A DNA stretch of 64,000 nt. Source: a bacterium. Lineage in GTDB: Bacteria; UBA10199; 2-02-FULL-44-16; JAAZCA01. Shown here piece by piece: positions 42,615 to 64,000 of the stretch. Positions within the stretch are counted from its first letter, which is position 1; each line of letters begins with the position of its first letter. The stretch lies in NCBI GenBank assembly GCA_963674695.2, contig CAXXGI010000001.1:192001-256000 (forward strand), given 5' to 3'. Both the position numbers and the translations under genes were made by a program. The notes beneath the pieces were generated by a model. It was not told the DNA's origin. It made no database searches and saw nothing but the letters and a program-made list of their open reading frames with translations.

Positions 42615-42747
42615 ACCCCCTCTTCGGCCGAACGACGCATTTGTTGTGTCTTTTTTGAATCGATATGAGCATTCTTTTCAGTACACGATAGAAATGACGT
42701 CCATCGACAAAAAACACGCATTTTGCCCTACTCTGAAGAGTTTTTAC

Positions 42748-42774
42748 GCAACTTTTCCTTGCATGTACCGAAGA
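42748..42774 (+). promoter_or_regulatory. Sigma28-like promoter motif
   Basis: GCAAC-N14-ACCGAAGA. Confidence 0.55.
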
Positions 42775-42812
42775 CATGGGCGAGAAATCGCGCCGTTTGG
42801 AGTCCACAGACC

Positions 42813-44555
42813 ATGAGCAAGACGATCGACCAACAGATTGAAGGAATGAGACGAAGCGCTGCGACCCAAGCGATCTTTCAGCGCACCTTTCAGACCACCT
42901 GCGCAACCGATTCGCGAAAGGGGCTTGAGACAACCCTCGATCGCTTCTTCCGCTATGCCTTTCAGCACACGCTTCGAGGCCTTCACCTCGACAACCCGCG
43001 CAACCACAGCGCGGCCTTCTTCGCGACCGATTTCGGCGAGTTCTTGCGCGAACGCCGCGGCTGTCCGGAACACTGCGCCGGCTACTGGCGCAACCACATC
43101 GCGGCACTCATGCGACACACCAGCCAGTTTCCCGCGATGAAACAGGTCGCAGAGATCCGTGGGCTCATCGTGGACATCGACGACTCGGTCGTGCTGGCCA
43201 CAGCGCTGCGCGGATATCTGATGGCCATGAACGCGCTGCTCGAGAAGGGACGCGATCATCTCCTCCTGCAGCGCAACGGACGGGATGCGGTCACTCAAAT
43301 CGCCCGCGCCGATGATCTGCGCAATGTATACTCCGCGTTCACGGCACATCCGCACCTGCATCGTTTCCCCATGCGTCGACACACGCCAGACCTCAAATCG
43401 ATCGATGGACCGTTCGAAGCGATGGCAAAAGTGGCGATCCACCACCAGAGTCCACACATCGAAGAGGCGACCGCCCACTACATCGCAAACGCGATCGACG
43501 TCGTCATAAAGCACATCGAAACCTCGCTGCTGCCCCAGACGGAGAAACTCAAGGATGCCGCGGGACCGATGGTTCCGCCGCCCAATCCGGATCTCCTCTT
43601 CGACGCCATCTTCTTCGATCCGCCGATTCTCCGGGAAGAGAAACAGATGCTTCAGGACATGCTCGACGTGGTCGAACAGGTGGTGCGGCATTCCCTCGCG
43701 GTCACCTCACGCCGAACGACCGCGGTGGAACAGACCATCAACGAAGCACTCATGGATGGGTCGCTCCTCCCGAAGGTCGAAAACGAAATCGACGCGGATC
43801 CATCGGTGGAGGCGCTGCTCTATCGCAGCAAGCTCATCCTGGAAGGAAGCAAAGCAGAGAGAATCACCGCGCCAACGGCTCAAGAACTCTACAACGATCT
43901 CCATCGCATGGTCGACAACATCATCACAAAGGGGGTCGAGCAATATCGACTGACCGAGCCGGAACTGCTCAAGGCCATGCTCCATAGCACACCGGGACTC
44001 AATGCCTCCTATACGCTCTATCGCGATCGGCTCCGCCAGGACCTCCCCCTTCTGGAACATGATATCCTGCAGGAGTTCTTTCAATTCCTCTCGTTCGAAG
44101 CGGGCATCGTCATGCCCACGTCGGCCCAACACAATGGGCAGACCCATATCGCTCCGAACGAAATTCAGGCAGCGTGGTCGCGTTTCCAGATCCTGGATGT
44201 TATCCACCACGACATCAAGGACCGCCTCCTGCCCGTACAGCGTAAACGCTGGGCGATCCTCCGGCAGATCCTGCGCGGGCTTGCACACCCCACGCCGCCA
44301 CAGGGCAACGGATCATCGAACGGAACGCCAACGGGGCAGAAGATGCCAAAGACCGGCCCTGTGCATCAGGCGGAACCGCTGGCCCAGGCACCAAACCCCA
44401 GCGTCGCCGAACAGCTCATCACCGATACCCTGACCAGAAACGACACCGAAGCGCTGACGCTGGATCCGGACACCTTCAATCCCCTCGATATCAATCCCAC
44501 CCCTTTCCCAAATGAAATCGGGGTATTACCTGCCACCCCCCTCAGGTTCATATGA
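42813..44555 (+). CDS. Orphan protein A (shared C-terminal tail)
   Basis: Long ORF with RBS ggag and no recognisable domain. Confidence 0.75.
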   Translation: MSKTIDQQIEGMRRSAATQAIFQRTFQTTCATDSRKGLETTLDRFFRYAFQHTLRGLHLDNPRNHSAAFFATDFGEFLRERRGCPEHCAGYWRNHIAALMRHTSQFPAMKQVAEIRGLIVDIDDSVVLATALRGYLMAMNALLEKGRDHLLLQRNGRDAVTQIARADDLRNVYSAFTAHPHLHRFPMRRHTPDLKSIDGPFEAMAKVAIHHQSPHIEEATAHYIANAIDVVIKHIETSLLPQTEKLKDAAGPMVPPPNPDLLFDAIFFDPPILREEKQMLQDMLDVVEQVVRHSLAVTSRRTTAVEQTINEALMDGSLLPKVENEIDADPSVEALLYRSKLILEGSKAERITAPTAQELYNDLHRMVDNIITKGVEQYRLTEPELLKAMLHSTPGLNASYTLYRDRLRQDLPLLEHDILQEFFQFLSFEAGIVMPTSAQHNGQTHIAPNEIQAAWSRFQILDVIHHDIKDRLLPVQRKRWAILRQILRGLAHPTPPQGNGSSNGTPTGQKMPKTGPVHQAEPLAQAPNPSVAEQLITDTLTRNDTEALTLDPDTFNPLDINPTPFPNEIGVLPATPLRFI

Positions 44556-44688
44556 TAGGTATCACTCGTTTTCCTTTCACAGAAAAACCGCTTGAATGTC
44601 GTCGCATAATATGGTCTGTCCCGTTATCCGACCCTCGTTCTGGGCGTGATGACAGCTCTGTCATTTTTTGACTGAGGAGGAACCCTTC

Positions 44689-46296
44689 ATGATCGCAGCA
44701 GGAGAGATCAAAGTCGGCGGCGCCAGCACCGATGGCAACCCCGCCCCTATCAGCGCTCCCGATAACACCGCTGCATCGAACACATCGGGGGCTTCCAGAG
44801 GATCCACGCCGCCGCCTTCCGATCCGAAGGATATGGCCGCACTCGCACAGCGCAGCCTCGAACTGATTCGAAAGCTCTCCGCTCACGCCGGCCCTGCGCG
44901 GAAACTCTCGCGTCCCTTCATCAAGCCGGAGACCTGGCAGGCGCAGATGTTCCTGCGCATGCCGTCCCTCTATGAACGCCTGGAGACAGAGGCCAGCGAT
45001 GGCCCGCACTTCTTCGCTCACTACGTCGATGCGCTGGAGACGTTTACCGAGGACTTTGTCGCGCAGCCGCGACACAAACGCTGGCATCTCTTCCCGGGAC
45101 TGAATCTGCTGGCATCGTTTGCCGAATATATCCGTGTCGAGCAATCCTACGGCTCCGACGGTTTTTGGGGATTCGGATCCTTGGCACTCTTTGAACATGC
45201 CGCCGAAGAACAATTCGCGATAACCCGCCTGCAGGAAGAGATCGACGAACTGCGAAAGAGCGCGCAGCTCGCGCCGCAGCCGGACGTCATGCGCGAAGTC
45301 GAACGCGTGCAGCGCGCCTTTCCCTATGTCGCACCCATCGAAGAGAGCAGCTTTGCGCGCAACCTCGAACGCACGCCCGAAGGAAACCTCGCCTGGATAC
45401 ATATGCTGCGCAGCACCCTTGTCGCGATGAACCAGACGACACCGATGATCGATCATGCCGATATCGTTCTGGCCGCAGCAGGAAAGGGGCAACAGCTCCT
45501 CACGCCAGTGGAGTTGGCGGCCTTCGCCAGCGGCATGGCTCACCGCCTGCAACAGGGGAAACACGACGCCACGCGTCCGAAGCTCACAATCGACCGAATC
45601 ATGGGACTGAATTTTGCCAACCAGAAAAGCCCCAACATGTTCGTCGCCAAGACGATCCACGCGGCGTTTCTGCGGGCAGGATCACAAAGCCGTGAGGGGA
45701 TCGAAAAGACGCCCAACCATCCGCGCTTTCATGCCCGCATCATCCCCAGCACGGCGGACATCATCGCGATGGGCGCCTACAACGCCGCCCAGGCCGAATC
45801 GATCCGCGAACAGTTTCGTTTTGCGCCGACAAGTGCTGCATTCCTCGCGTTCCTCTTTGACGAGGTCGGGCTGACCGTCGATGCCAACCAACGTTTCACG
45901 CCCGAGAGCAAGCGCTGGGCCGGACAGATCCTGCCAAAGCTCGCCGCATTCGACGCCGAAGAACGCGTCCTTCCCGAAGCGCGCCACGAAGCGCTGGCGG
46001 CCGCAGCGAGCGCCGGACAGAACCTGCTTTCAGGAGCCCTGCCCGCACTGCCCGACCTGCGCGGACAAGCGCCGGGTGGCAGCACCAACCCCCCATCGAC
46101 ATCCGGCAGCGGCGGGAAGGACGACCCGATCGTGGTCGATGAGGGCAGCACCGCAGGAGCCAGCGCGATGACGGCCGACGGTATCGATATCGCCCCTGCC
46201 ATCAAAACCGCGATGGATGAAGTCCATAACCCGGAAATGAACATGCTCGGACCCTGGGGGCAAATGATCACCCCACAACTGTCGTTGAAGTTTTGA
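44689..46296 (+). CDS. Orphan protein B (shared C-terminal tail)
   Basis: Long ORF with RBS gaggagg and a disordered S/P/A-rich N-terminus. Confidence 0.78.
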   Translation: MIAAGEIKVGGASTDGNPAPISAPDNTAASNTSGASRGSTPPPSDPKDMAALAQRSLELIRKLSAHAGPARKLSRPFIKPETWQAQMFLRMPSLYERLETEASDGPHFFAHYVDALETFTEDFVAQPRHKRWHLFPGLNLLASFAEYIRVEQSYGSDGFWGFGSLALFEHAAEEQFAITRLQEEIDELRKSAQLAPQPDVMREVERVQRAFPYVAPIEESSFARNLERTPEGNLAWIHMLRSTLVAMNQTTPMIDHADIVLAAAGKGQQLLTPVELAAFASGMAHRLQQGKHDATRPKLTIDRIMGLNFANQKSPNMFVAKTIHAAFLRAGSQSREGIEKTPNHPRFHARIIPSTADIIAMGAYNAAQAESIREQFRFAPTSAAFLAFLFDEVGLTVDANQRFTPESKRWAGQILPKLAAFDAEERVLPEARHEALAAAASAGQNLLSGALPALPDLRGQAPGGSTNPPSTSGSGGKDDPIVVDEGSTAGASAMTADGIDIAPAIKTAMDEVHNPEMNMLGPWGQMITPQLSLKF

Positions 46297-46306
46297 GGAG
46301 AACGGT

Positions 46307-49300
46307 ATGGTCATGACACGCGCACCACAAGCACTCGATGCCGCCCGCAAAGCCGCCCGAGCGATGCTCCCCCGAGGAGCATCCGAAGCAGCGGAGTTGG
46401 GGCTCGCCACGGCGCTCATCGAAGAGTATCAGCATTCCGAACGGCTCGAATCCGATGCGAGCATCGCGCGCTTTGAGGCGACGCTCGTCGATGCCGTCGA
46501 TCGCTACGTTCAGCAACCGACCCACAAGCGATTGCACCTCACCACGGCCGGCCACCGCGCCCAGGCCGAGCGCTTTTTCGCGGCATTCCGCAAAGAAACA
46601 TTCGCGCCCTTCGGTCCGCGGCGCAACTATGGCCACCTCAAACTCATCGTCTGGCTCATCAGCCCCAAAACCGCTTCGAATGAGCGCAACGCGCTGCTCG
46701 CGCAGACCCTTCCGAAACTCTCCGAGGAGGGATTTGATGCCACCACCCTGCGCGACGGCATCATCGGTTCGATGAACCTGCCCCCGCGCGCAGCCACACA
46801 CCTGATGGAACGCGCGCGTCGTTTCCTGATGACACTCGATTCGTTCAGAGAAATACCTCCTCAGGCATCACCCGCGAAGCTCTTCGCCCTGCTCAACGAG
46901 AGGCGATTCGGAAACATGAAGCTCTCGCTCCCGCAGTGGCTGGCCCGGGTCGATGACGCCATTGCGGAGGCCGAACGCACCGGTGAGACCGGCACGCTCT
47001 TCGCTACACTCAATGATCTCACTCGCGGAGTCGTTCGGCTGCAATCAGACCTCTTCGCAGAGGGGCAGCTGCTCGACGCGTTTCCCCAGCTCTTCGATGT
47101 GGATCGAACCCCCGCATTCGACGCACCGAGCGCACCGGATCTACTGCTCGAAGGCCACCGCACGCTCGAAGGGGCACGCACCCTGCTCAAACAATTTCCT
47201 GATCTCAAAGCCCCGATGGCCTCTCTGGATGAAATCGCAATCCTGGAACGACTGCTGACATTCCTCGTCGACCGCACGGTACCAGAAGCGCTTCGGCTGG
47301 ATCTGGCCCAACACCTGATGACGATGCCGCTGCCGGATCCGCTCACCAACACCCATATCGTCCTCGACCGTGGACCCAACACGCTCTATGCCCAGGTGCG
47401 CCTCCTCACCGAAAACCCGATGGCCTGGTCGCACAAGGATATCACCTCCGCCGTCTCTTACAGCCTGGCCCCGAATGTGGGATCTTTTCTCAAACGCCTC
47501 GCGCTGGCCTCACCCGTGCTGGCACAGGAACTCCACCAGGAAATTGCACCAGCAGAGGCGAGCGAGGATTCCTGGAGCGAGCACTTCACCCCGCAACTGC
47601 ATCTTGACGCACAACAACCAGCGCCGCTGTCGATCACGCCCTGGAACCTCGACGCGATGACCCTCAACGACGCGATCGAACCGCACGCGGGGCTGCGCGA
47701 TGAAATTATCGCGACGACGCGCGAGCTGACCGCCATCGATGCACAGCTCGCCCGACACGCCAACGAATACGGCATCGACGATGCCTACCTCCACAGCCTC
47801 GATCGGCTGCTGATGGTCGAAACGCGCGCCCATGAGGGGAATGCGCTGCGCAGTGCCATCGTCGCACGCACCGTGGCGGCACATGCCTGGGCGGCCATGG
47901 CGCTCGCCCCCGATCGGTCGCACGAACTCGAAGAGACGCTCATCAGCGCCGCTGTTCGACTGGCTCGACACCTGAAACCGGCAACGGCTATCGCCAACAG
48001 CATCTTCGACACCAAATATCCGCTCGGAAGACACCGCATCGTCTCGCCAGGGCCGACGCATCGGGGCGACCCGAACTGGCAGCTGTCCGGCGTACACCTG
48101 CTCCCCGACGGCATGGGGCTGACCGAGAGCCACATCACGCCGTCGGAGATCATCGCCCACGCTGGAGTAATCGCTGCAGGGCGAGGTCATCCCGTCTGGG
48201 CCAGCACCTTCCTTTCAAACGCGGCACAGCTCGACAACGCCGCTCCGTTCGCCTTTCCGCTCATCACCTCCGCGATGTTGGCCGCTGCACCGATGATGTC
48301 CACGCCCCTGCTGGCGCGTGGATTGGGACAGCGTCCGGTCGTCATGAAGGAGACACCGCGAAATCTGGTACATCTCAGCCGCATGAGCACATCCGATCGA
48401 CAGTGGCTGATGCAGTCGGGCTATATGCGCCAGACGCGCGACGGTTTTTCGCTCAACACCGATCTGCGATTCGGGGGAAAACCGCTCTCGATCGCGTATC
48501 CGGCCACCTTTTCTGAAATCGCCGCGCGGTTGAGCGACGACGATCCGCTGCGCGATCGCCAGCTGCTGTCGACCTATCTCCTCCCCTTCGGCGGTGAAAT
48601 CGGCATTACCAATCGCAGGAGCGAACCGATCGCCCACCTCATGCCATTGACGGGCGACCCACGCGAAGGGCTCCTCGATACACGCAGCCCCGACCGCATC
48701 GCCGGGCAGCTGCAGCGCTTTCTCCAAGACGAACAACTCGAAGGGAAAGATCAAAACGCGATTGGGCGCGCGGTCACGATGCGTCTGTTTCCCTATTCTG
48801 ACTTGAACGGACACAACCCGATCGTCGCCACCATGACCAACGGCTATATCGTTCGCGCAGCGGTGAACGATGACGGCACGCCGATCCCTGGGGCCTACAC
48901 GGTCGAGACTCGCGTCTATGGACGCGACGACACCGTCGCCCGGGAAGAGCTGAATACGGAACTCTTCATCCCGGATACTACACCCGATTCGCTCTGGGGG
49001 AAGGAGGAGTTCCTCCGCGTCAACCTGCGGCTCGCCGTCAACGACGGACATGTCACACAGGCCGATCTCATCACCCGCCAGAATGACACACTGGTGCGCT
49101 ATGAGTTCGCGCCGCCGGAGATCAGGGCCCTGCAGGGAATCGTGCCGCCATTGGAACGATTTCATCTCCATGCGCCCGATGCGCCGACGCTGCTGGGATG
49201 GCAGGTCTTTCCGACACACCTCTGGGCCGAGGACATCTCGAAGGAACAGGCCAACCGCATCGACCCGTGGGATTCGAGCCGCGGCATCTTGAACCTCGAC

Positions 49301-50545
49301 CTTCCCCAGTCGCTGACCAGCCGGCTGGGGCTCTCCCATGAAGCGCTCCTGCGCCTGCAGGGGTTGCGCTCGCTGCGAGAGAAAGAATGGGATCAGATCG
49401 ACCGCTATAGCACAGACCTCCACATTCATCCCACGACGGGTTCCAAACATCCCTTTGCGGAGCTGGATGACGAGGCGCTGACCAAAATCGTCTTCCCGGA
49501 CGTCGAAGCACAGGCTGGCGCGACGGTCGACTGGATCAATCGTTTGATCGAACGATATACCGATCACCCACAACCGACGCTGCTGGGCGATCTCGCCGCT
49601 CTGCGTTTGACGATCCAAGCCGCGGTCGAAGGGCAGGTCGATTATAATCGGCTGGCTGGTGCCGTGCGCGAAGCGCTGCGCTTGCATGCTTCGGCAACCC
49701 CTGCCTCCGAGCTGGAATTGATCGAACGATCGCGAAAGGAATTGAAGGATACCATCACCGCGCACACCGCCCCCTTAGGAGCGCGCATGCTCGAAGAGCG
49801 CGCTCGTATCGTCAGCGAACACGCCCATCGCTTTGACCCGAACTTTCTCCACGCGTTCGCCTATGACACGAAGCTGCGCACCCCGACCTTTTCCGAATAC
49901 GAACCTCCGTTTCTGGCGAACATGCCGAGGGAGATGCAGACGCTGGTCGCAGCCAATCGTTCGATCACGCCGGGCTTTGACAAGGCACACGAGCGCTATC
50001 TCGCGGAAGCCGAGAAACTGGGACTTCCCGAAAACGATGACGGCTTCGGATCCTTTCTCGTCAACGAAACGATGCTCACGTTCGAAAAAGACGGACGCAT
50101 CGATCCCCACAGCATCCGCTGGGAGATCGACCTGCTCAATCACCTTCGCCCGCACCTGGACATCGATCGGCTCTCGGAAGATCGCCTGGCCGCCTGGAAT
50201 CTGGCCACCGACATCGCCATCATCCTCGACCTGGCGCAGCCGAGTTCGCCCTCCTCGACCCCACCGGCGTCGGGGAACACCGAGAACTCACCTCCTACGC
50301 CATCGAACGCCGGCGATCAGGGAAGCGGCACGCCCGGTGCGAGCACCGCAGAGACCCGAGCGATGCAACCGCTCGTCGTCGAAGCCAGCGCCATCTATGC
50401 CGACCCCCTGGCCAACCCTCTGGCCGTCGGCTCCGAACGCGTCATCGATGATGGCATGGCGGGAGTGACCTCGGATCCGTTCCTGGGTATGGGTCCCGCA
50501 TCGACCTTCGGCAACGCTTTTGCCCTGCGCGCCCTGATGCCTTGA
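46307..50545 (+). CDS. Orphan protein C, 1412 aa (shared C-terminal tail)
   Basis: Long ORF with RBS gaggag, 10 nt after gene B. Confidence 0.82.
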   Translation: MVMTRAPQALDAARKAARAMLPRGASEAAELGLATALIEEYQHSERLESDASIARFEATLVDAVDRYVQQPTHKRLHLTTAGHRAQAERFFAAFRKETFAPFGPRRNYGHLKLIVWLISPKTASNERNALLAQTLPKLSEEGFDATTLRDGIIGSMNLPPRAATHLMERARRFLMTLDSFREIPPQASPAKLFALLNERRFGNMKLSLPQWLARVDDAIAEAERTGETGTLFATLNDLTRGVVRLQSDLFAEGQLLDAFPQLFDVDRTPAFDAPSAPDLLLEGHRTLEGARTLLKQFPDLKAPMASLDEIAILERLLTFLVDRTVPEALRLDLAQHLMTMPLPDPLTNTHIVLDRGPNTLYAQVRLLTENPMAWSHKDITSAVSYSLAPNVGSFLKRLALASPVLAQELHQEIAPAEASEDSWSEHFTPQLHLDAQQPAPLSITPWNLDAMTLNDAIEPHAGLRDEIIATTRELTAIDAQLARHANEYGIDDAYLHSLDRLLMVETRAHEGNALRSAIVARTVAAHAWAAMALAPDRSHELEETLISAAVRLARHLKPATAIANSIFDTKYPLGRHRIVSPGPTHRGDPNWQLSGVHLLPDGMGLTESHITPSEIIAHAGVIAAGRGHPVWASTFLSNAAQLDNAAPFAFPLITSAMLAAAPMMSTPLLARGLGQRPVVMKETPRNLVHLSRMSTSDRQWLMQSGYMRQTRDGFSLNTDLRFGGKPLSIAYPATFSEIAARLSDDDPLRDRQLLSTYLLPFGGEIGITNRRSEPIAHLMPLTGDPREGLLDTRSPDRIAGQLQRFLQDEQLEGKDQNAIGRAVTMRLFPYSDLNGHNPIVATMTNGYIVRAAVNDDGTPIPGAYTVETRVYGRDDTVAREELNTELFIPDTTPDSLWGKEEFLRVNLRLAVNDGHVTQADLITRQNDTLVRYEFAPPEIRALQGIVPPLERFHLHAPDAPTLLGWQVFPTHLWAEDISKEQANRIDPWDSSRGILNLDLPQSLTSRLGLSHEALLRLQGLRSLREKEWDQIDRYSTDLHIHPTTGSKHPFAELDDEALTKIVFPDVEAQAGATVDWINRLIERYTDHPQPTLLGDLAALRLTIQAAVEGQVDYNRLAGAVREALRLHASATPASELELIERSRKELKDTITAHTAPLGARMLEERARIVSEHAHRFDPNFLHAFAYDTKLRTPTFSEYEPPFLANMPREMQTLVAANRSITPGFDKAHERYLAEAEKLGLPENDDGFGSFLVNETMLTFEKDGRIDPHSIRWEIDLLNHLRPHLDIDRLSEDRLAAWNLATDIAIILDLAQPSSPSSTPPASGNTENSPPTPSNAGDQGSGTPGASTAETRAMQPLVVEASAIYADPLANPLAVGSERVIDDGMAGVTSDPFLGMGPASTFGNAFALRALMP

Positions 50546-50573
50546 CCCCCTGATCGACAGATTAAAACAGCAC

Positions 50574-50600
50574 GAAACTTTTCGGGGTATGCGCCGATAT
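50574..50600 (+). promoter_or_regulatory. Sigma28-like promoter motif
   Basis: GAAAC-N14-GCCGATAT. Confidence 0.62.
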
Positions 50601-50654
50601 ACCCGTGCACGGCATCGCCTGCTGTGGTAATTATTTTTTCAGGAAAGGCTTTTC

Positions 50655-51776: not shown

Positions 51777-51815
51777 ACTGTTGCACACCCCCGATGCGAC
51801 AGTTCTAAACAGCAC

Positions 51816-51842
51816 GCAACTTTCCTTGCATTTCTGCGAAAA
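51816..51842 (+). promoter_or_regulatory. Sigma28-like promoter motif
   Basis: GCAAC-N14-TGCGAAAA, preceded by agttctaaacagcac. Confidence 0.58.
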
Positions 51843-51881
51843 GACGGGGACGAAGCGACCCTACCGCATGCATGGAGAGAT

Positions 51882-54800: not shown

Positions 54801-57800
54801 TTTCAGGCCGTCTCCGCACTCGTACGCACGCGGATCGCTGCCCAGGCGGGCAACAGAACAACGCTCATCGTCGACAACACCACAGCGGCATCGCTCTCGA
54901 ACGACCGTCGAAATGCCTTGGCAACAATTCGCCTGCTCATCCCTCTTGCACACCGCGAGGGAAGACTCGCGCCCGGCGCGGAATCGAGCATGGCCCTGCT
55001 TCACGATGGTATCGCCCCGCTCTGGACAGACGACATCCATCGCCTGGATCAGGCCGTGCAGGATTATCAGCGATACGCCAACGCCAGACCGCTCGACGAT
55101 GCCGGCACGGACCTCGCTCAGATCCTGCGCACCGGAGGAGCCGGCGCACACGTACGCGTTCTTCCGATCGGCCCGATGCTGCCGGGGGGCAGCGCCGCCT
55201 GGCGCGAACAGTTTCCGTCCTTCGCCCGCAAGCGCGATGCCGATCACAGCATGATCGATGCCGGGATCGAGGCGATGACCGAATACTTCGCCACCAGCAA
55301 GGGATTCACGGGACACTTCTGGAAGCGCGACCTCGACCGCATCACGTCGAAGTGGGCAGACTACGCCGACGTCGACGCGCAAACCCTTCGCGCCCACATC
55401 GTCGCCTTCCTGCCGACCATCGGCGTCGCAAACGGCAAACCGAAGGATTGGATCGTTTCGATCGATCCGAGCGCACCGGAAGGAATCGCGCGCACGGATC
55501 TGGCCAACCGCGCCCTGCACATCTATCTCGAACTCTTCGCCCAAACGCCTCACATGACCACGAAGGTTCCGATCGAGGAGACGCTCCTCACGGATGTCAT
55601 CAATCGCACCTTCGCGGAATATGGCGCCGAGCTCGCCCATCGACCGAAACAACGCCTCGTGTTGCGCGAGACGCGCCTGCTGCTCGAGCGCCACAATGCG
55701 CAATCGAGCACCCCCACGATGCGAGCACAGGTCACGCTCCCCAGAACGGGACTCGGGCAGAAGACGGATGCGGAGGCGATGGAGCGGTGGCAACGGCTCA
55801 CCACGCACGCACGCTTCGGCATCGCTGCATTCGCGCGCCAGCACTTTCACGCACCGTATGCCACCGACGCCGCCATCGAGGAACTCGCGCTGCGCTTTGC
55901 CAATGAACGGCTCTTCTCGGCAGGAGCCATCGCGACGGAAACGATCGCATTGGAACTCGTCGGCGAAAATTTCCTCCCCTTCGAAGCAATCGCGCATCGC
56001 ATGGCGCTGGGAATGGCCCAGATTCTCGACGCCTATCTCACGCACGTCACCGAACACACCGATGCCATACACGCGCGCGCGATCGAGGCGATCGAGGCAA
56101 CCGCGAATGACGACGCCTTCTTTGCAGCGAACGAAGCCGAGTTTCGCGAGACTCTCGTTGCACGGCACGACCTGCCCGCATTCACAACGCTCATCGAAAC
56201 CGAAGCGAATGGAAGGCTCGCGCACGCGCTCGCCGGGAGCGAAGCGCCCGAGATCTCGATCGAGACATACACACAGGAACGCTACGCCGAGACCGTTGCC
56301 CCGCGCTATGAACACGCTCGCGCCGCGCGCGAGACGAGCGCGACCGAGATGGAGCAGCACCTTGCGGCCATCGGAGAGCTGCATGCCCAGGTGATGGCGC
56401 TCTCGGCTCGATACATGACGGCGATCGACGCCTCCGACATGAACCGCAATATCATCGAGCGCTGGAGCAAAACCCTCGAGGCGGGAGCGACCGCACTCGC
56501 AACGGCTCGCGAGAAGAAACCGGCGCTCATGTCATGGCTCGATGCGATCCAGGCCATCGCGCTCGACCTGGCCGACGCCCCGCACCCGACGCTCGAACGC
56601 CCGGGCGTGATGGACCGGGCGGTCGCCGCCGAAACAAGCGCTGAGGAAATCGCGACAACGCTCGACGCGACCGATGCGCGCGTGAAGGAAAATCGCCAGG
56701 CTCTCGATGATCGTCTGAAGGACATTGAAGCGAGGGAAGAGGCGCAGGCGATCGCGCAGACGGCACATACCCTCACCGGAGCGTTGACCACACAGAAAGA
56801 CATGCTGCAGCAAGCCGTGCAGCAGGCAACTGCCGACATCGATGCGATTCAGACGGATGATATCGATGCCATCGAACGGATCATCGCGTCTCTCAAAAAA
56901 GAGCTCTCCGACGAAAAAATCGGCCACGATCGCTTCGATGATGGCAGGAGCGCACAGGTGGTGATCGGCAACACGTCCGAAAAACTCCACGGACGCCTTC
57001 GGGAAATCGAAGCGCACCTTGAAAAGGCATGCAAAGGGGAAAAGGGGAACCTGACATCTACGCTCAAACAGGCCCGGACAATCCTCCAGAGAATCGACGG
57101 CGAAGATCCAGCCCTTGCGGCGCAGATCGCAGCGATCGAGGAAACGCTTGGGAAAACAGAGACGCTCATCGCTCGGATCACTGCCCTTCATGTGCAGATC
57201 GACGCCTTCTCCGAAACGGTCGCGCAGACGATCACCGCAGCAGAACCCAAACTCACCGTCGCCGATGCGATCGACTTGAGCCCCTTCCGCACGTCACCCA
57301 GGGCAGCCGCATCACCGTCCGATCTCGTCCTGAACGATGAAGCCATCGCGGGAAACCCGCACTTCAAGGCCAAACAGCGTCTCGCGCCGATTCTTGATGG
57401 AGGCGTGTTCTCGTATGCGGGCAAAGCACATCTACTCTCAGCTGATACGATAAAGCGGATCACAATCTGGATGACGAATGGTCGAACAGAAACGCTCACC
57501 TTTACCGACCTCTTCGACACGAACATCAAACTGGCGGCAGGAACATACGGCCTGCGCCTCGACGCGCGCAGCGATCTCATCGAGCACAATCCCGATCACG
57601 CCTATGCGCGTATCATCGCGACGCTGACGCTGGTCATCGAGGAAAAGGGGGGCGCCTCTGAAATCCTCTGGCGACTGGCGAGTCAATCACTCGGACAGAC
57701 AACGAACACCAAGGCACAGGCGCTGATGCGCAACCTCATGGCCACGCTGGCCGAACAGAAGACACCCGCCAACGCCGCATCCGCGCGCGCAGCCCTGAAC

Positions 57801-60800
57801 GACTGGGCCGTGCGTTATCGCGAGAATCTCTCCCAGGCGCTGGACACTGCCACCATCTCGAAGATTTTTCGAACTCCAGAAACGAAGAGCAAAGCCCCGA
57901 CGGAAACACCGCTCGGAATCGAGAGCGTCTACAGCTCGAACCTGCACGCAGCGATGGCACGACATTTTCAAGCACAGATCGAGATGCCACACCTGGAAAC
58001 GGTCCTGATTCGGAGCGCGAACGCGTTCACCGGCCTCCTCATTGATCCGAAAACGATGCAGCGCAGGCCGGGCCACAGCAATCCCCTCCAGATGAACGAG
58101 ACCACCCGCGTGTACGATTCGGGTCGGGGGAAATGGATACGGTTCAGAGAGATAATGAGCACAGTGGGAACCATCGACCTCAAACGAAATGTCTTCCTCG
58201 TGGACAACCCGCTGACCTCTCCCCGCAATACACGCGTGATGCGTCTGTATACGCGCATCTTTTCCAACCCCGAGTTCATGGATCTGGGATGGCTGATCCT
58301 GCAAGCGCTCACCAACAACATGCCCGCCCCGCTCACCCTGAGCATCATGGGGCTGCTCGAACCGATCACTCAGGCCTCCGAAGAGATGCCGCCGCCGAAG
58401 GAGCTGCACGACGTCCAGCGAACGGCGGTCGAACTCTACCGGATCTGGACGGAACCCGTCGAAGCGATGCCCGAGGTCGAGCGCTTCGATGTTGAGAATG
58501 CGAGCGCGACCATCGATGTCTTCCTCGACAAGGTCTCGATCAATTCCGAACTCGTCTCGCATAAGCTCACAACCGAGATACCGCGAAACCCGAAGCTGCG
58601 CCGTGAAATCGCCATGCTCCTCATGCTCTCGGCGGTCACATCCGACGACTATGTCGACGCACGAACGATCGATCAGGAGAAATCGAAGCAGATCTACGAG
58701 TTCATCATGGAGCGCTTCGCCACCATCGCCAGAGCGATGCTCTTTGGGAACGCCTCAAAACGCGACCATACGTTCAACGCCGTGCTCAAGGACGGAAAGA
58801 CCGAAGCGCTCTATCGAGAGCTCCGCCCCCTGATCCTGGCCGACCGCACCAGAAACATCATTCGTTTCAAGGAGGCGAAACAGGTCGACAACGCCATGAT
58901 GCAGCGACGAGTCCTCTTTGCCGAGCCGAGCCCGGCGATGATCGCTCGATTTCCGGAGCTGGGCCGCGTTCCGATCGACGCCATCTTGAAGGCCCTCGAC
59001 CTGGATATCGAAACCGGTTTCGGCGAATTCGGCTATGTCCTGCCGGAGCTGGCCCCCTTGCTGACAATCCTGGCGATCGCGGAGCCATGTCTCCCACAAT
59101 CGTTGCGCCAGGAAACGGAGAAGCTCTTTGAACAGATCACCAACGAGGCTATCGACCTCTCACAGAACAGGAAACGCGACCGGAGCGCCATCCTCGATGG
59201 CATCGCGGAACAGACCATCGAACTCTACGCCGCCCACCGCGAGGCGATCCACGATGCGCTGCGCGAAACCGACCCGCGGACGGGGCGCACCTTCGCCTAC
59301 GGTCTCTTCGGCACCGACGCCTTCGCGCGCGAAGAGGAGCCGACCTGGGAAGAGATGCGAGCCTATCCGCTTGTGCGACTCCTCATGCCGGAGAGCGCAC
59401 AGGTCGCGCCTTCATCGCAGAAGATGATGCACTCGGACATGCTGCAGGGAAAGCTCACACTCCCCGGAGTGCCGTCTCCAACGGCAGACGCCATCCGCGA
59501 CTATGCGCTCGCCTTTCGCGAACACGTCGATCCGGGGTTCGTCTTTATCCTGCTCGGCCTCGAAAATGCCGAGCAGCTCCCCCGGCCGCTGGCCGATTAT
59601 TTCACGCAGCGGGAATGGTCGCGACCGGCCGTGCCCGAGCGCGGGGCGCCGGACTATCTCGCACGCAAGACCGACACGATGGCAGAAATTTTTATCACCT
59701 TTCAGCGAACCACCTTCGAGATCGCCGACATCCTGCGTGAGCCCGGCGTCCTGGCCGAGATGCGCGAAAGTCTCTCGGAAAACAACGGCCACCCTTCGAT
59801 CGCACTCGTCGGTACCGGCATGGAAGAGCCCTGGCTCCCCCTTCTCGTCCGACCGAAGCAGGTGGTCGATCGCCGGCTCGTCGAGATCATCCCGGAGCTC
59901 GGAGCATTCCAAACCCTTCCGGACGGGTATGATCGGCAGGACCCCATCACCGAGGCCGAGCCCCTGCTGCTGCTCTTCGACATCGCTCGCACGCACTTCT
60001 CGAAGCGGATGGAGCATGATTTCAAAGCGATCGCCAAGTGGATACGACAACATCTAGACGATGCAGCTGAACTCAATACGCCCAGGGCCCTCAAGCGAAA
60101 CGAATCATTCATGGCGCATCTCATCCCCTTCGTGCAACGGCATCGGGATGAGATCCGGGGCATGCTCTACACGCCGCTCAATAGCTTCCCGCGCGCGACG
60201 TTCAAACCCTATCTCGACGAGGGATCGTTCTCGCTCGACGATCATCTGCTCGAACTGATCACCGGCGATCATTTTCCACTCGACCCGCAGCTGCGCAACG
60301 CCCTGCCGATGCGCGCCGACGATCTGACCGAACACGACATCAACACCGCGCGCGCGATCCTGGGATCACACGCCTGGCTCGGGGATGCGATCGGCGATGA
60401 CAACCGCATCGCGCTGCGCGGCCAGATCGCCTGGCGTCTGGAAAACGCGATCGCGTCAGCAGAAAGCAAACCCCTTGGCGCGACGCTCATCACGCAGCTC
60501 GCCGACATTCCGGATGAATTCTATCCGGCCATGATGCTGCCCTGGTCGCAGGCGCTCCCCGAAGTTCATCACGATATGTTTGCCCATACCCTTCAGTCGA
60601 GCGGTGCCCTCGACGCCGAGCACGGCATCGTCGACCCGGATCGTCTCCTCTACGAACACGCCTGGATCCTCGTCGACGACCACGCGCACTTCTTTCCCCT
60701 CGTCAACCGCGCGCGATTCGACGAAAGAGCCACTCCCCTGCCGCGTCTCATACCGACGCAGGAACACCTATCACTCCCCGATCCGGCAGACGCCACCGTC

Positions 60801-61511
60801 GCCGATATCGACGCCTTCTTCAATGGGCTCCTCCAACGGGGAGAGCGCTCCGACCCGATCGGGCGAGAATACGCCATCGAGAGTGCCGTCAACAATTTTC
60901 AGGGCCAGATGAAAGGGACCTTTTTTTCATTCGAACCACCGTGGCTCAAGGGCACGCGCAAGAACAATTTTCTGGAGACCCTCCATCCGGCGGGAAGAAA
61001 GATCCTCTTTCTCGAAGCCATGTTCTGTATGCGCCCGGGGGACATGAACAAGTGGGGATATACCCTCGTATCCGAATTTCTGGAACGATTGACCAAGGAA
61101 CGGATCAAAGAGACCGATATCGACGGCATCGTGCGCATGCTCTACACGGTCTTTTGCGAACAGCGCCGATACGAGCTCCAGGAGATCATCGCAAACCCCG
61201 CGCGCCTCGAAGAGATCCTGGATGATGTCCAATCACGGCCGCTCAAAAATCGAAAGGGCGGCGGATCGAACACGCCGCCGACGAGCAGCGCGCCGCCCAC
61301 GAGCGGCACGCCGCCGACGACACCATCGGGCCCGGGCGGATCGCAGGCCAGCGCTCTGACCACCGACACCGCGCTCGCTTCGGGCCTGGATCTTATCATT
61401 GCGGATACGAACGCCCTCATGCCGGTGGAAACCGAGATGATGGATATGAGCGCCGACACCTATCTCTACCCCATGCTCACCGCACCGATGACAGCGGCGA
61501 TGATACTCTAG
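51882..61511 (+). CDS. Giant orphan protein E, 3209 aa, helical with a central coiled coil (shared C-terminal tail)
   Basis: 9.6-kb ORF with RBS ggag and an A/E/L-rich heptad region near 56.3-57.25 kb. Confidence 0.88.
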   Translation: MSINSISIQIAQTLAQSVTTAIDEGDGSSVSDRADQFLPDAATRESTFAFTPKQLGDVIDAMTETFLRNTRASSLARYDIATTFRNAFHILTNEQFPKMRERIAKGETPSPKQIAQLITASLKKGYAEAHRTTQKSAALHIAPYAEILAPFVERYAARLDLVGSKDPASTPKRTQKKSPSQAAQTISPTAAAKIIVRARTRIDAMQAWILTLDGDAQQRAEENLNRATSLITETGLTSLGADEIEIADALERLGAVQILAATEAVLEIEEAFIAVRALVHKAAIDDSTLQTDRFLDRAIVAQGRARTLRDDLNDWIAARPECAEHDAALRTALDHYLRFWLNAHREDTSQRLTLIPEMREDAVALTLSAAGDERHAFNAIFRQLLAHLVISAQQRSLQSIADGIERKPETKQEGTSHPQQESDVRTRLAHRRKQLQGERGSDILTASQTASTRKTTPTSATTPPSRRRPFIPGGTQGLGSLIDEYERLIGPIDPDQFERETGSDLKRVRQYGEIRRDRLASAARWNILRRLMQGTPWETLVADAEENETLDRLILRYPPANASTAWPQQVWQARQQDRLVELARSYTPSAFLLGMNLRAMLERNPPKDADEKKWKKTVTEYAEAGLVTDFELSEYDRPPYLAKQDWELVIAHHIANDDLERISTEPRHANANAELLAIFDALWTRARRHGFELDPIDLLAGASPIIRSMRDRATANGTIDVFVPRFMAELKYENFGTPTLARLLGGLDQIPEATRLNQERGGVIRMSWMTLDRINTPLAVADISGLDDQERRHKEFDGGFMRWVDLALNITPQIQDASGRAQGRAALPAASRYRFQLTPNPAEYVVDESEGAAHDISSVLTNAGRGYYGRLLHRVDDYLNAIISLPFEVTITSIPQQGREETQTIPVETLREEVSALMSEEEENRVLLQVGSMDAELQSDLESFYAALGRRLREMLYHMPARGTAVIGDHAIPFQAVSALVRTRIAAQAGNRTTLIVDNTTAASLSNDRRNALATIRLLIPLAHREGRLAPGAESSMALLHDGIAPLWTDDIHRLDQAVQDYQRYANARPLDDAGTDLAQILRTGGAGAHVRVLPIGPMLPGGSAAWREQFPSFARKRDADHSMIDAGIEAMTEYFATSKGFTGHFWKRDLDRITSKWADYADVDAQTLRAHIVAFLPTIGVANGKPKDWIVSIDPSAPEGIARTDLANRALHIYLELFAQTPHMTTKVPIEETLLTDVINRTFAEYGAELAHRPKQRLVLRETRLLLERHNAQSSTPTMRAQVTLPRTGLGQKTDAEAMERWQRLTTHARFGIAAFARQHFHAPYATDAAIEELALRFANERLFSAGAIATETIALELVGENFLPFEAIAHRMALGMAQILDAYLTHVTEHTDAIHARAIEAIEATANDDAFFAANEAEFRETLVARHDLPAFTTLIETEANGRLAHALAGSEAPEISIETYTQERYAETVAPRYEHARAARETSATEMEQHLAAIGELHAQVMALSARYMTAIDASDMNRNIIERWSKTLEAGATALATAREKKPALMSWLDAIQAIALDLADAPHPTLERPGVMDRAVAAETSAEEIATTLDATDARVKENRQALDDRLKDIEAREEAQAIAQTAHTLTGALTTQKDMLQQAVQQATADIDAIQTDDIDAIERIIASLKKELSDEKIGHDRFDDGRSAQVVIGNTSEKLHGRLREIEAHLEKACKGEKGNLTSTLKQARTILQRIDGEDPALAAQIAAIEETLGKTETLIARITALHVQIDAFSETVAQTITAAEPKLTVADAIDLSPFRTSPRAAASPSDLVLNDEAIAGNPHFKAKQRLAPILDGGVFSYAGKAHLLSADTIKRITIWMTNGRTETLTFTDLFDTNIKLAAGTYGLRLDARSDLIEHNPDHAYARIIATLTLVIEEKGGASEILWRLASQSLGQTTNTKAQALMRNLMATLAEQKTPANAASARAALNDWAVRYRENLSQALDTATISKIFRTPETKSKAPTETPLGIESVYSSNLHAAMARHFQAQIEMPHLETVLIRSANAFTGLLIDPKTMQRRPGHSNPLQMNETTRVYDSGRGKWIRFREIMSTVGTIDLKRNVFLVDNPLTSPRNTRVMRLYTRIFSNPEFMDLGWLILQALTNNMPAPLTLSIMGLLEPITQASEEMPPPKELHDVQRTAVELYRIWTEPVEAMPEVERFDVENASATIDVFLDKVSINSELVSHKLTTEIPRNPKLRREIAMLLMLSAVTSDDYVDARTIDQEKSKQIYEFIMERFATIARAMLFGNASKRDHTFNAVLKDGKTEALYRELRPLILADRTRNIIRFKEAKQVDNAMMQRRVLFAEPSPAMIARFPELGRVPIDAILKALDLDIETGFGEFGYVLPELAPLLTILAIAEPCLPQSLRQETEKLFEQITNEAIDLSQNRKRDRSAILDGIAEQTIELYAAHREAIHDALRETDPRTGRTFAYGLFGTDAFAREEEPTWEEMRAYPLVRLLMPESAQVAPSSQKMMHSDMLQGKLTLPGVPSPTADAIRDYALAFREHVDPGFVFILLGLENAEQLPRPLADYFTQREWSRPAVPERGAPDYLARKTDTMAEIFITFQRTTFEIADILREPGVLAEMRESLSENNGHPSIALVGTGMEEPWLPLLVRPKQVVDRRLVEIIPELGAFQTLPDGYDRQDPITEAEPLLLLFDIARTHFSKRMEHDFKAIAKWIRQHLDDAAELNTPRALKRNESFMAHLIPFVQRHRDEIRGMLYTPLNSFPRATFKPYLDEGSFSLDDHLLELITGDHFPLDPQLRNALPMRADDLTEHDINTARAILGSHAWLGDAIGDDNRIALRGQIAWRLENAIASAESKPLGATLITQLADIPDEFYPAMMLPWSQALPEVHHDMFAHTLQSSGALDAEHGIVDPDRLLYEHAWILVDDHAHFFPLVNRARFDERATPLPRLIPTQEHLSLPDPADATVADIDAFFNGLLQRGERSDPIGREYAIESAVNNFQGQMKGTFFSFEPPWLKGTRKNNFLETLHPAGRKILFLEAMFCMRPGDMNKWGYTLVSEFLERLTKERIKETDIDGIVRMLYTVFCEQRRYELQEIIANPARLEEILDDVQSRPLKNRKGGGSNTPPTSSAPPTSGTPPTTPSGPGGSQASALTTDTALASGLDLIIADTNALMPVETEMMDMSADTYLYPMLTAPMTAAMIL

Positions 61512-61603
61512 TCCTCATTGAAGGTGTCATTCCCGCGAACGCGGGAATCTCGCTTATCAACGCTCAATCGAGATCCCCGTTTTCACGGGGATGACAAAAA
61601 CCA
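61511..61603. repeat. REP doublet / truncated MITE family 1 remnant
   Basis: gtcctcatt-gaaggtgtcattcccgc...ctcgcttat....tcaatcgag...gatgacaaaaaccaa matches the MITE-1 interior. Confidence 0.75.
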
Positions 61604-61660
61604 AACTCCACCTGTATTTAACCCTGCGCTTTCCAAACTCACGTCAGTTCTAATCAGCAC

Positions 61661-61687
61661 GCAACATTCCTGGTATTTCCGCGATAC
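61661..61687 (+). promoter_or_regulatory. Sigma28-like promoter motif
   Basis: GCAAC-N14-CGCGATAC, preceded by agttctaatcagcac. Confidence 0.6.
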
Positions 61688-61723
61688 ATACGCTACGCGC
61701 TCGTGCGCGAAAGAGGGAGAACT

Positions 61724-64000
61724 ATGTCTGTGGATGGCATCAACAATCAGGGCAAACCGCCCGCACAGGGGGACCTCCCCCGGGGCGATGACGCTCGCCC
61801 GGAAACGGAGGCGCGGCATGAAGCACCGGCGCGTGCGGTGGATGCGTTTGTGCTCGCTGCACCGGCGACGGCGGCATACACGGTTTCGCGCAACGGCGAT
61901 GATGATGGTGGTGATGATGATCGAGCGTTGACCAAGGCACAGATCGAGGCGGCGCTCACGGCGATGATCCCCCGCATCTTTCGCAACACCCCGACCAGCC
62001 TCGAGACACACGACGCGGGCATCATCCTCAACGACGTCATCAAGACCTTTCAGGATAAGATCCAGCCCAAGCGCAAACGCACGCTCGAAGGGGAAGTCGT
62101 CGACACCGAGGCGATGAAAAAGACCCTGCGCCCTATCGTCGTGCGCGCCTACGCCGAACGATATGAAATCGGGCAGAAGAAGGTGAGCGATTTCCAGATC
62201 GATGGCTATCTGCGCGAACTCACCGCATTCATCACGACAAACGCACGCCGATTGCATCTCATGGGAACGAAGGCGATCGCTCGAAAACAGACATCCCCCC
62301 CTCCTTCCGAACAAGTCCCCACGCCGGCGGCCACCGCTGCACTCGTGGTGGAAGCGATCGCGCGGCTGGCCGAGATCGAACGCAGCGCGGCCATGTTTTC
62401 CGAACGGGATCGGAAATTCATCGAAACGGCGTGGATGACGGCGACCGAGGCCTACGAGGAAGCGCTTGCACCGTTGGGTCTCCAGATGGAAGAGATCATC
62501 CGCGCACTCGCACCGGAAGCGGCACGCACGCGGGCGGTGGAGGCGGCACGCATCATCGCCGACGAGGGGCAGAGGGTGCGCACGCGTCTGCTCATCCATC
62601 AATCCGATCTCGACGATCCCGCCATCGACGCCTTCCTCGACCGACCCGCTGCGATCCGGGGAAGCAGGGCGAGCATGCGCGACGAACTCGAGACCTGGAG
62701 CGAAAAACAGAAATGGATGGACGTCGAGGGGCAGGAACTCATGCTCGCCGTGCGCGCCTACATCTCCCTCTGGAGGCAAACGCCCGAGGGACAATCCGGC
62801 AGCCCGCTCGCGCTGCGATCCGAATTGCGTCGCGACGCCTCGCAGCTCGCAGCTCACCTCGAGGGAAACAGCACGCGCGCCAACATCCTGAGCGGTGCCC
62901 TGCGACGCGCGATCGTCCACCTGATCCGCTGTGCCGCAGGCCGATCGCCCCGCCGTGAATCGACGGGTGCCGTCGCGATGAGCACCGAAGACGACAACAC
63001 CGTCGCCATCTCATCCGAGCCGCGCCGTCTTCTCAGCGCGCAGCTGCGCGAGGAACAGCGCAGCTTCACCTCCCGCGTTCGCGCCGGCGCGTTCGGTCTC
63101 GATGATCTTCCGGAGGAGATCCGAAGACAGCTCGCCACGCGATTTATCGGATTTCTGAACCACTATGCGATCGCGGCACGCGAGATGCTCGGCGATGCCT
63201 TCGACCCGGAGACCCTCTTCGAATCCCCGCTCGACACCCGTGCCATCGCCGCGATCTTTCGCACCGTCCCCGGAGCGCGGGAGCGCTATCCACAACAGAT
63301 CATCGAGCTGCTGCGCGCCTTCGCCCACGATGTGAGCGGGCAGGAGCAGCCGCCGATGGAATCGCTCCTGCCCAGCGGCGCGGCCACAGCGAACCGTCAG
63401 GCCCGTGTCATGCGCATCATTCCTTATGATGGCGAAGGCGGCATGAACGGCCTCATCCGCGAGATCGAAAAGGCGATCGGTCCGATCGACGCCGCGCGCT
63501 TTCGACAGCAGACCGGAGTCGCGCTGACCACCATCCGCGGCTACGGCGAGGTGCGAAAGATGCGCCGCGTCTCCGATGCCGTCTGGAAGGAGATCGTCGA
63601 CCTCGTGGCATCGGGCAACCCGTGGCACCGACTGATCGTGCGCGCCGAAGAAAACGGAACGCTCGAGGCATTGCTCATGCGTTTTCCGAAGCGCGGCGAT
63701 GTCGATGCCTGGCGCGAAGACATCAACGCCGCCGCCGAATCCGGGCTACTTTCAGAGCTCGCGCATTCCTACACCCCAAAGGACTTTCGTCCGACCGAGG
63801 GCATGACGCTGCACGGCCTCATGGTGCGCAACGCCGAGGATCCGGACGATCCCGAATGGCGCGAAACACTCACCGTCTTCGAGGCGGATGGAGAGCTGGC
63901 CCTCCTGGCGCGCGATGAAGCCCCCAAACAGCTCTCGCCCCAGGACTGGGAACTCTTCATCGGACACACCATCGCCGACGGCCGTCCCGAGCAGGCCACC
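61724..64000 (+). CDS. Orphan protein F, paralog of E, runs off the window (not in the ORF track)
   Basis: RBS gaggga and ATG at 61724 (MSVDGINNQG...). The frame appears open to the window end and aligns with the N-terminal ~670 aa of protein E. Confidence 0.85.
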   Translation, partial: MSVDGINNQGKPPAQGDLPRGDDARPETEARHEAPARAVDAFVLAAPATAAYTVSRNGDDDGGDDDRALTKAQIEAALTAMIPRIFRNTPTSLETHDAGIILNDVIKTFQDKIQPKRKRTLEGEVVDTEAMKKTLRPIVVRAYAERYEIGQKKVSDFQIDGYLRELTAFITTNARRLHLMGTKAIARKQTSPPPSEQVPTPAATAALVVEAIARLAEIERSAAMFSERDRKFIETAWMTATEAYEEALAPLGLQMEEIIRALAPEAARTRAVEAARIIADEGQRVRTRLLIHQSDLDDPAIDAFLDRPAAIRGSRASMRDELETWSEKQKWMDVEGQELMLAVRAYISLWRQTPEGQSGSPLALRSELRRDASQLAAHLEGNSTRANILSGALRRAIVHLIRCAAGRSPRRESTGAVAMSTEDDNTVAISSEPRRLLSAQLREEQRSFTSRVRAGAFGLDDLPEEIRRQLATRFIGFLNHYAIAAREMLGDAFDPETLFESPLDTRAIAAIFRTVPGARERYPQQIIELLRAFAHDVSGQEQPPMESLLPSGAATANRQARVMRIIPYDGEGGMNGLIREIEKAIGPIDAARFRQQTGVALTTIRGYGEVRKMRRVSDAVWKEIVDLVASGNPWHRLIVRAEENGTLEALLMRFPKRGDVDAWREDINAAAESGLLSELAHSYTPKDFRPTEGMTLHGLMVRNAEDPDDPEWRETLTVFEADGELALLARDEAPKQLSPQDWELFIGHTIADGRPEQAT

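Follow-up and report, generated by a model that had tools for sequence, protein, structure and literature searches.

A ten-gene cluster whose products share a C-terminal tail

We analysed a 64,000-nucleotide stretch of a bacterial genome (the window; G000 contig C1, positions 192001 to 256000), in which six plus-strand open reading frames (ORFs), A to F, occupy the sequence from position 42813 to the window end and encode proteins with a common type of C-terminal tail. The genome measures 3.03 Mb, is assembled in 3 contigs (C1 to C3) and has an estimated completeness of 100%; the GC content of the window is ~0.6 throughout. An earlier note on this DNA, made from the sequence alone, had reported a cluster of six giant orphan genes. 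The six co-oriented ORFs are present at the reported place, but they are only part of the cluster: reading past the window end reveals ten co-oriented genes, which span ~50.5 kb and 16,457 codons (C1:234723 to C1:285232, or 42723 to 93232 in window numbering). The intergenic gaps measure 10–249 bp, no small chaperone-like ORF lies between the cluster genes, and a promoter and terminator scan of positions 42400–62000 gave no excess over shuffled sequence. The genes, together with the segments that encode linker and tail, are as follows.

Gene A, 42813..44555, + strand: 580 residues from ATG (the longest ORF starts from TTG at 42723); orphan body, weakest tail
Linker and tail of A, 44298..44552, + strand: last 85 codons
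Gene B, 44668..46296, + strand: 542 residues, 0 Cys; orphan body with a disordered-looking Ser/Pro/Thr-rich N-terminus
Linker and tail of B, 46039..46293, + strand: last 85 codons; PIVVD 56 residues before the end
Gene C, 46307..50545, + strand: 1412 residues, 0 Cys; orphan
Linker and tail of C, 50288..50542, + strand: last 85 codons; PLVVE 58 residues before the end
Gene D, 50655..51776, + strand: 373 residues, 0 Cys; orphan
Linker and tail of D, 51519..51773, + strand: last 85 codons
Gene E, 51882..61511, + strand: 3209 residues; giant paralogue family E/F/H/K
Linker and tail of E, 61254..61508, + strand: last 85 codons; no secondary structure predicted
Gene F, 61703..64000, + strand: first 766 codons of a 3770-residue gene that continues to 73015 in window numbering
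Genes beyond the window, + strand: G (1346 residues), H (3622 residues), I (1099 residues) and J (504 residues)

Architecture and composition of the tail

All ten cluster proteins are built in the same order: a body, then a linker of Gly, Ser, Thr, Pro and Asn, then a tail of 55–65 residues. The earlier note had described such an ending, a Ser/Pro/Thr/Gly/Asn-rich linker followed by an acidic tail rich in Met, Pro and hydrophobic residues, for the five complete proteins of the window; the five tail strings that it quoted agree with the ORF translations, and the description extends to the whole cluster. The same linker and tail are carried by K, L and M, three proteins encoded on contig C2. The cluster tails contain 6–11 Asp and Glu, 0–3 Lys and Arg and many Met, Pro, Ala and Gly residues, and close with an uncharged hydrophobic end. 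Specifically, the last 60 residues of the tails hold 0–3 Lys and Arg and 6–18 Met and Pro, versus proteome means of 7.8 and 4.5, respectively (1963 ORFs).

The aligned tails also keep an order of motifs: a PLVVE-type motif, SG-hydrophobic-x-D, hydrophobic-hydrophobic-P-x-D, an M-D-M-G/S-A-D/E-x-F/Y-type motif and a Pro-initiated, Met/Ala-rich end. This order is kept over 17 aligned tails, two of which come from a related genome. The PLVVE-type motif is positioned 47–64 residues before the end in nine tail proteins. Its generalized form, P[LIM]VV[EDAT], which was picked after the tails had been inspected, occurs 19 times in the proteome, with 11 occurrences located 40–100 residues from a C-terminus versus 2.6 expected. 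In addition, nine of the ten cluster proteins have Leu or Met in the third-last position. The same holds for 11 of 20 tail proteins, the proteome background being 11.5%; when the last 12 residues are shuffled, a mean of 5.0 of the 20 proteins have Leu or Met there, and 0.3% of 2000 shuffles reach 11. A motif of the class-II chaperone type, P-x-hydrophobic-x-x-P, was also tried: it falls within the last 30 residues in 4 of 20 tails versus 1.5 expected (P 0.05), and we dropped it.

AlphaFold2, given the 17-tail alignment, predicts no secondary structure for the tail, with a predicted local distance difference test score (pLDDT) of 62 and a predicted template modelling score (pTM) of 0.14. The predicted disorder would make the tail resemble linear signals, unlike folded sorting domains. 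The DNA that encodes the tail ends shows only matches of 16–40 bases among the genes, which argues that the likeness has been kept at the protein level and does not stem from recent copying. These results describe a linear element, predicted to be disordered and evolving fast, that is recognizable by its architecture and composition more than by its sequence.

The tail in the genome and its relatives

Outside the cluster, the genome encodes no fewer than eight further proteins with the tail, and a looser reading by composition gives ~29 proteins. When the ends of 1963 ORFs were screened by composition, 48 candidates emerged, of which ~28 were judged to be of the tail class. A profile built from 17 tails matched 14 proteins of this genome, with the B protein among them, at E values of 3e-15 to 6e-6; since all 14 are seeds, the matches demonstrate coherence of the set and not discovery of new members. 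A profile with 13 seeds added one non-seed protein, C1_991398, at an E value of 0.012. In leave-one-out tests against 2186 ORF ends, seven of 13 tails were outranked by two non-seed ORFs or fewer. Above the other tails, non-seed ORFs number 10 for C3_265814, 21 for C, 110 for D, 229 for H and 474 for C2_281353, and C3_137177 was not matched at all.

As far as these comparisons go, the resemblance among the tails is weak and lies mostly in composition and motif order. The earlier note had proposed to set the tail profile against shuffled low-complexity termini: the position-specific features exceed shuffles and expectation, while the profile similarity itself is weak, with the leave-one-out result of seven in 13. 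In the syntenic clusters of related genomes, large proteins likewise end in a linker and a Pro/Met/Ala-rich hydrophobic end.

A family of giant paralogues

The bodies had been described as largely unrelated, which holds for the orphans A to D but not for the largest proteins. E and F share 27% identity over 1710 residues and are paralogues; the same family includes H and K, the latter a protein of 2902 residues encoded at C2:669784-678492. Matches to this family occur in 12 of the 41 genomes of the class, our genome included. The family is rare and lineage-restricted: among 1.84 billion proteins, 62 cluster representatives were found, 46 of them at E < 1e-30, and the members are mostly 1900–4400 residues long with 0–0.7% cysteine. 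A word-based search of 5.8 billion proteins returned only E, F and one other protein, and a related-loci search with a 4-sequence alignment returned one locus, on a metagenome-assembled contig that is G008.

In several genera, one or a few giant genes lie between RNase G/radical-SAM genes and a MiaB/RimO-like gene. Here, a MiaB/RimO-like gene on the opposite strand comes after the cluster, and the ordinary genes upstream of the cluster encode GyrA, Obg, RNase G, radical-SAM proteins and an S41 peptidase. The same position in several genera suggests an ancient locus that has undergone expansion in this genome. Within the giant family, many proteins end in a linker and a Pro/Met/Ala-rich hydrophobic end, and the acidic part is not conserved.

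The conserved core of the family, represented by residues 594–1288 of E, folds confidently in a predicted model (mean pLDDT 81, pTM 0.56). Structural search with this model, a check that the earlier note had proposed, gave no match in the PDB or BFVD at E <= 0.001 and no usable match in the ESM Atlas. PADLOC returned only a weak LmuB-type coiled-coil match for E, at an E value of 0.0014. Elsewhere on contig C2, one ORF (C2:526741-565167) reaches 12,808 codons and has a Cys-rich end; it belongs to a class distinct from the tail proteins.

Orphan and domain-bearing bodies

The statement that the proteins of the window have no recognizable domain stands: Pfam gives nothing above threshold for A to F, and NCBIfam gives nothing and PADLOC nothing meaningful for A to E, so that A to E match no known cytoplasmic family. 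For the genes beyond the window, NCBIfam gives a single menH match for I, far below threshold, and nothing for G and J. A PDB sequence search with C and E gave no match. The proteins A, B, C, D, G, I and J have no phmmer match to each other or to the ORFs in 14 loci of relatives, D has none in 40 related genomes, and C finds only itself among 5.8 billion proteins within a length range of 776–2471 residues. B and C have in common a 39-residue N-terminal motif (pairwise E 1e-4), a further departure from unrelated bodies; by eye, no N-terminal motif common to the tail proteins was found apart from this pair.

Other tail-bearers have bodies with known domains:

G: ResIII/DEAD helicase domain
I: alpha/beta hydrolase domain
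A 2257-residue tail protein: ABC1 kinase-like domain
Two tail proteins outside the window: GHKL ATPase
One tail protein outside the window: UDPGP nucleotidyltransferase-like
One tail protein outside the window: metallo-beta-lactamase and two cNMP-binding domains

The tail is therefore attached to several body families, as the earlier note had proposed for different bodies. The UDPGP-like protein offers a direct comparison. Eight of its ten closer homologues (39–56% identity) stop at the domain end, and the other two have a basic extension of another kind, whose end is a similar VMLPTAG-type stretch. The absence of the tail from the eight indicates that it is an appended module.

A PilZ-domain gene (C3:272685-273362) directly follows the gene for the 2257-residue tail protein, and a small PilZ paralogue, 31% identical, lies near another tail gene (C2:286383-286739). 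Giant genes of Omnitrophota have been described in a preprint with adjoining Tad/type II-like loci and PilZ genes (10.1101/2023.11.21.568195). We regard the PilZ and Tad resemblances as parallels and not as evidence.

Cysteine depletion and absence of N-terminal signals

Over 18 tail proteins, which together count 26,260 residues and take up 2.6% of the genome, cysteine makes up 0.26% of the residues, versus 1.36% in other ORFs of at least 300 residues. B, C, D, G and the 2257-residue tail protein have no cysteine at all. Among 586 ORFs of at least 500 residues, the cysteine content is no higher than 0.25% in 42, the six longest of which are all tail proteins; by our own count, ~17 of the other 31 low-cysteine ORFs have a hydrophobic, export-type N-terminus. 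By contrast with such N-termini, a hydropathy check and a reading of the N-termini revealed neither an N-terminal hydrophobic signal nor a clear membrane span in the tail proteins examined, in agreement with the earlier observation that a Sec signal is lacking. In B, F, H and K, the N-terminus is polar, rich in Ser, Pro and Asp, and looks disordered.

Candidate secretion machines

A survey of secretion machines, suggested in the earlier note, gave a divided answer: parts of type IV and type VI systems, contractile sheaths and classical type I systems were not found, while a flagellar-type export core and a Tad-like pilus locus are present. Specifically, the VirD4 (PF02534) and VirB4 (PF03135) families, the two type IV models used, have 0 matches in the genome and matched in control genomes. 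Neither a type VI sheath nor a contractile phage-type sheath was found in the genome. Family-1 encapsulin (PF04454) has 0 matches in the genome and none over the cut-off in 12 relatives, with one sub-threshold match in G002. The genome encodes five TolC-like OEP proteins and one PF00664 ABC exporter. The exporter starts directly with its membrane domain and, among the adjacent genes, has no membrane-fusion or OEP neighbour; it is thus probably of the lipid flippase type.

The flagellar-type type III export core (C3:6001-26000 and C1:136001-147000 of G000, outside the window) comprises, among the parts searched for, FlhA/SctV, FliP, a FliG-like protein, FliH/SctL, the ATPase, a FliK-like protein, FliM, FliQ, FliR, a YscO/FliJ-like protein and FliN. 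An FHA/YscD-type protein and TPR proteins are encoded beside it. No match in the genome was obtained for the N or C domain of flagellin or for the N-terminal domain of rod/hook proteins. Among the searched systems, this core is the sole candidate for exporting proteins independently of Sec. Across the class, FlhA occurs in 40 of 41 genomes and rod/hook genes in two of 41, both with a second FlhA copy. Three small ORFs that lie among the core genes (C3:6717-7307, 18475-18909 and 18953-19285) have nearly identical C-terminal sequences.

The Tad-like locus is located 6.75 kb downstream of K and encodes RcpC, a secretin, a CpaF-type ATPase and two TadB/C-type proteins; the genes for the tail proteins L and M lie 7–13 kb upstream of K. 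Judged by neighbouring ORFs, the other two secretins of the genome stand in type II-like and type IV-pilus-like contexts.

Other genes in the window

Several further genes of the window merit a record. A 476-residue ORF at 29492-30922 (- strand) combines a full TatD-type DNase domain with a radical-SAM domain, an unusual fusion if real. Two large ORFs, at 7411-10560 (- strand, 1049 residues) and 26941-29367 (- strand, 808 residues), match no Pfam family, and a 1502-residue protein with PKD/REJ-type domains is encoded at 22204-26712 (+ strand); none of the three was flagged as tail-bearing. At 16778-21489, a DUF4423/helix-turn-helix regulator adjoins a thrombospondin-type-3-repeat protein and a DUF3160 protein, a gene set that we take to be typical of deltaproteobacterial-type predators.

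Interpretation of the tail

The earlier note had read the tail as a C-terminal targeting or secretion signal on a repertoire of effector-like cargo proteins. We favour this reading, namely that the tail is a signal and that its cargo leaves the cell, at a probability of roughly 0.4. The tail would then be a transferable C-terminal address on a flexible tether, read by one common receptor, most likely a route that exports or delivers proteins from the cytoplasm. The cargo would consist of effector-like proteins of a predatory or host-associated lifestyle, among them the four giant paralogues with their unmatched fold, enzyme-like bodies and pure orphans. Export is favoured because the proteins are depleted in cysteine, have no Sec signals and carry the tail as an add-on. 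What stands of the earlier claim is an appended tail shared by a cargo-like repertoire with five-fold less cysteine than the proteome.

Several results weigh against an export signal and hold the claim back. The searches for VirD4, VirB4 and PF00664 point to no machine known to read C-terminal signals in this genome. Sequence similarity among the tails is weak: six of 13 tails do not come near the top in the leave-one-out tests, a six-tail profile (70 residues each) run against 11,693 ORF ends found only its six seeds with the next best at E 0.12, and the tail of gene A, the weakest member, is not matched by the 17-tail profile at E <= 0.001. The tail-profile scan proposed in the earlier note matches 14 seeds in this genome and nothing in 40 related genomes, not even the two seeds from G001. 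Several tail-bearers carry cytoplasmic-type signalling or nucleic-acid domains (GHKL ATPase, cNMP-binding, helicase), so a non-secretory targeting role is possible, and three are located near histidine-kinase/response-regulator genes. The giant gene stands in conserved synteny between housekeeping genes in several genera, a setting that suits a core component of the cell better than it suits mobile effectors. Three further points bear on the type III core as the reader of the tail: type III signals are N-terminal, the FliS family was not found in the genome, and a core that occurs in 40 of 41 genomes cannot alone explain a cargo family that occurs in 12 of 41. We consider it unlikely that the flagellum-derived core, possibly together with the Tad-like pilus, exports the proteins by reading their tails as C-terminal signals.

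The strongest competitor, which we judge somewhat unlikely, is an intracellular docking tail, a linear motif on a tether that would gather cytoplasmic proteins at a hub, a pole or a membrane patch with no secretion involved. The C-terminal peptides of FtsZ and SSB are of this kind, a short linear motif on a flexible tether, and the tail, predicted to be disordered and placed on a long linker, has a comparable layout. The GHKL ATPase, cNMP-binding, ABC1 kinase-like, helicase and nucleotidyltransferase domains of the bodies suit docking, as do the tail genes that adjoin histidine-kinase/response-regulator genes or, in one case, a PilZ gene, the housekeeping synteny of the giant gene and the lack of a secretion machine for C-terminal signals. 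Two-component genes are common, however, and adjacency to them may be chance. Moreover, docking leaves a five-fold cysteine depletion, with zero cysteine in proteins of 1346–2257 residues, that is unusual for the cytoplasmic proteins of this genome.

The remaining explanations are less likely than either export or docking. Type I-like ABC-dependent secretion, a one-step export through a TolC-like channel by means of an uncleaved C-terminal signal, would accommodate the size, acidity, low cysteine content, lack of a signal peptide and acidic/hydrophobic C-terminal end of the proteins, and five TolC-like OEP proteins are available. Yet the only PF00664 exporter has no partner genes beside it and is probably a flippase, RTX or other repeat domains were not found, and 14 to ~29 substrates would be unusually many, which makes this route improbable. 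Little probability likewise goes to a stability or processing tag, in which the hydrophobic end would be a degron or a cleaved pro-piece for a protease. A candidate protease is at hand in the S41 peptidase with a PDZ domain and a lipoprotein-type start, encoded at 40812-42614 (- strand) directly upstream of A and divergent from it, and non-polar C-termini are what PDZ proteases bind. The syntenic loci of G012, G007 and G006 lack the S41 gene at this position, however, and as an envelope protein the protease could act only after export; furthermore, a tail of 55–65 residues with ordered motifs and a linker exceeds the needs of a degron. Finally, the ends may have no specific function and be fast-evolving, disordered, low-complexity sequences whose likeness reflects composition bias and the shared ancestry of a few families. 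The weak profile similarity, the absence of detected tails in relatives and the unconserved acidic part in the giant family agree with this. Against it stand the same ordered architecture on bodies with unrelated domains, position-specific features (the PLVVE-type motif and the third-last Leu or Met) with no copying at the DNA level, and a UDPGP-like body that lacks the tail in eight of its ten closer homologues, and we hold this explanation to be very doubtful.

Comparison with known systems

A C-terminal signal on varied cargo is a known principle. The Dot/Icm signals of the type IVB systems of Legionella and Coxiella consist of an unstructured C-terminus with acidic residues and a hydrophobic residue approximately third from the end. 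They occur on many proteins that are unrelated to each other, often of large size, and have no Sec signal. The tails described here are likewise acidic and predicted to be disordered, and nine of the ten cluster proteins have Leu or Met as the third-last residue. These tails differ in being longer, in following a Pro/Thr/Gly linker, in their richness in Met and Pro and in the PLVVE-type motif, and the two Pfam models used found no VirD4-family coupling protein or VirB4-family ATPase in the genome.

Type I substrates such as HlyA/RTX proteins and LapA-type adhesins are also giant, acidic and cysteine-poor, lack an N-terminal signal and have an uncleaved C-terminal signal of ~50–60 residues. RTX or other Ca-binding or adhesin repeats are typical of such substrates, though not universal. 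The proteins studied here have no RTX or adhesin repeats (no Pfam family in A to F and no tandem repeat domains in the other scanned tail-bearers), their bodies are of mixed helical and strand type with enzyme-like domains, and the single ABC exporter is unlinked. Cargo of type IX secretion likewise consists of large, variable proteins, poor in cysteine, that have a C-terminal element in common, but that cargo combines a Sec signal with a folded beta-sandwich C-terminal domain. Here the N-termini show no hydrophobic segment, the tail has no predicted secondary structure and Pfam gives no tail domain. Encapsulin and microcompartment peptides offer another likeness, with cargo, flexible linker and a short C-terminal targeting peptide on unrelated enzymes; the genome has no family-1 shell (PF04454), and cargo of 3000–3800 residues would probably be very large for shells.

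PEP-CTERM and MYXO-CTERM signals consist of a short motif, a membrane-spanning helix and a terminal basic cluster. Compared with such exosortase- or rhombosortase-type signals, the tails have no Lys/Arg clusters at the end and contain helix-breaking Pro and Gly. Three other proteins of the genome (C2:663188-664351, C3:1319-3979 and C2:391890-396479), which contrast with the tails, end in a Gly-Gly-Cys-type motif, a hydrophobic helix and an Arg cluster, and these ends resemble MYXO-CTERM-like sorting signals.

Myxococcus xanthus kills and lyses prey through the cooperation of a Tad-like Kil pilus with a needle-less type III secretion system, and the effectors of the two are not known (PMC12075869). 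Here too, an export core without needle or filament parts occurs together with a Tad-like locus and a cargo set without a known route. The core described here differs in having flagellar-type parts (FliG-like, FliM and FliH).

The tail and the giant family have no match in the family libraries, solved structures or viral models that were searched. Literature searches, which were not aimed at the tail sequence itself and so count as weak evidence, returned no description of either.

Implications

If the tail is a delivery signal, it would define a cargo set of 14 to ~29 proteins, amounting to at least 2.6% of the genome, in an uncultured, Myxococcales-like lineage with small genomes. The route would be one that none of the searched secretion-system markers explains, and the tail would provide a sequence rule that can be used on reporters. 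Were the narrower type III-core reading true, the cluster would reveal a new secretion pathway with its own effectors and give a first handle on the cargo of the needle-less type III secretion system and Kil pilus of Myxococcota. The class-wide flagellar export core without axial parts raises a separate question, that of the cargo it exports. Even if the tail is a docking tag, a tether with a peptide address on 400-kDa proteins of unmatched fold and on ordinary enzymes alike would represent an unusual form of cell organization.

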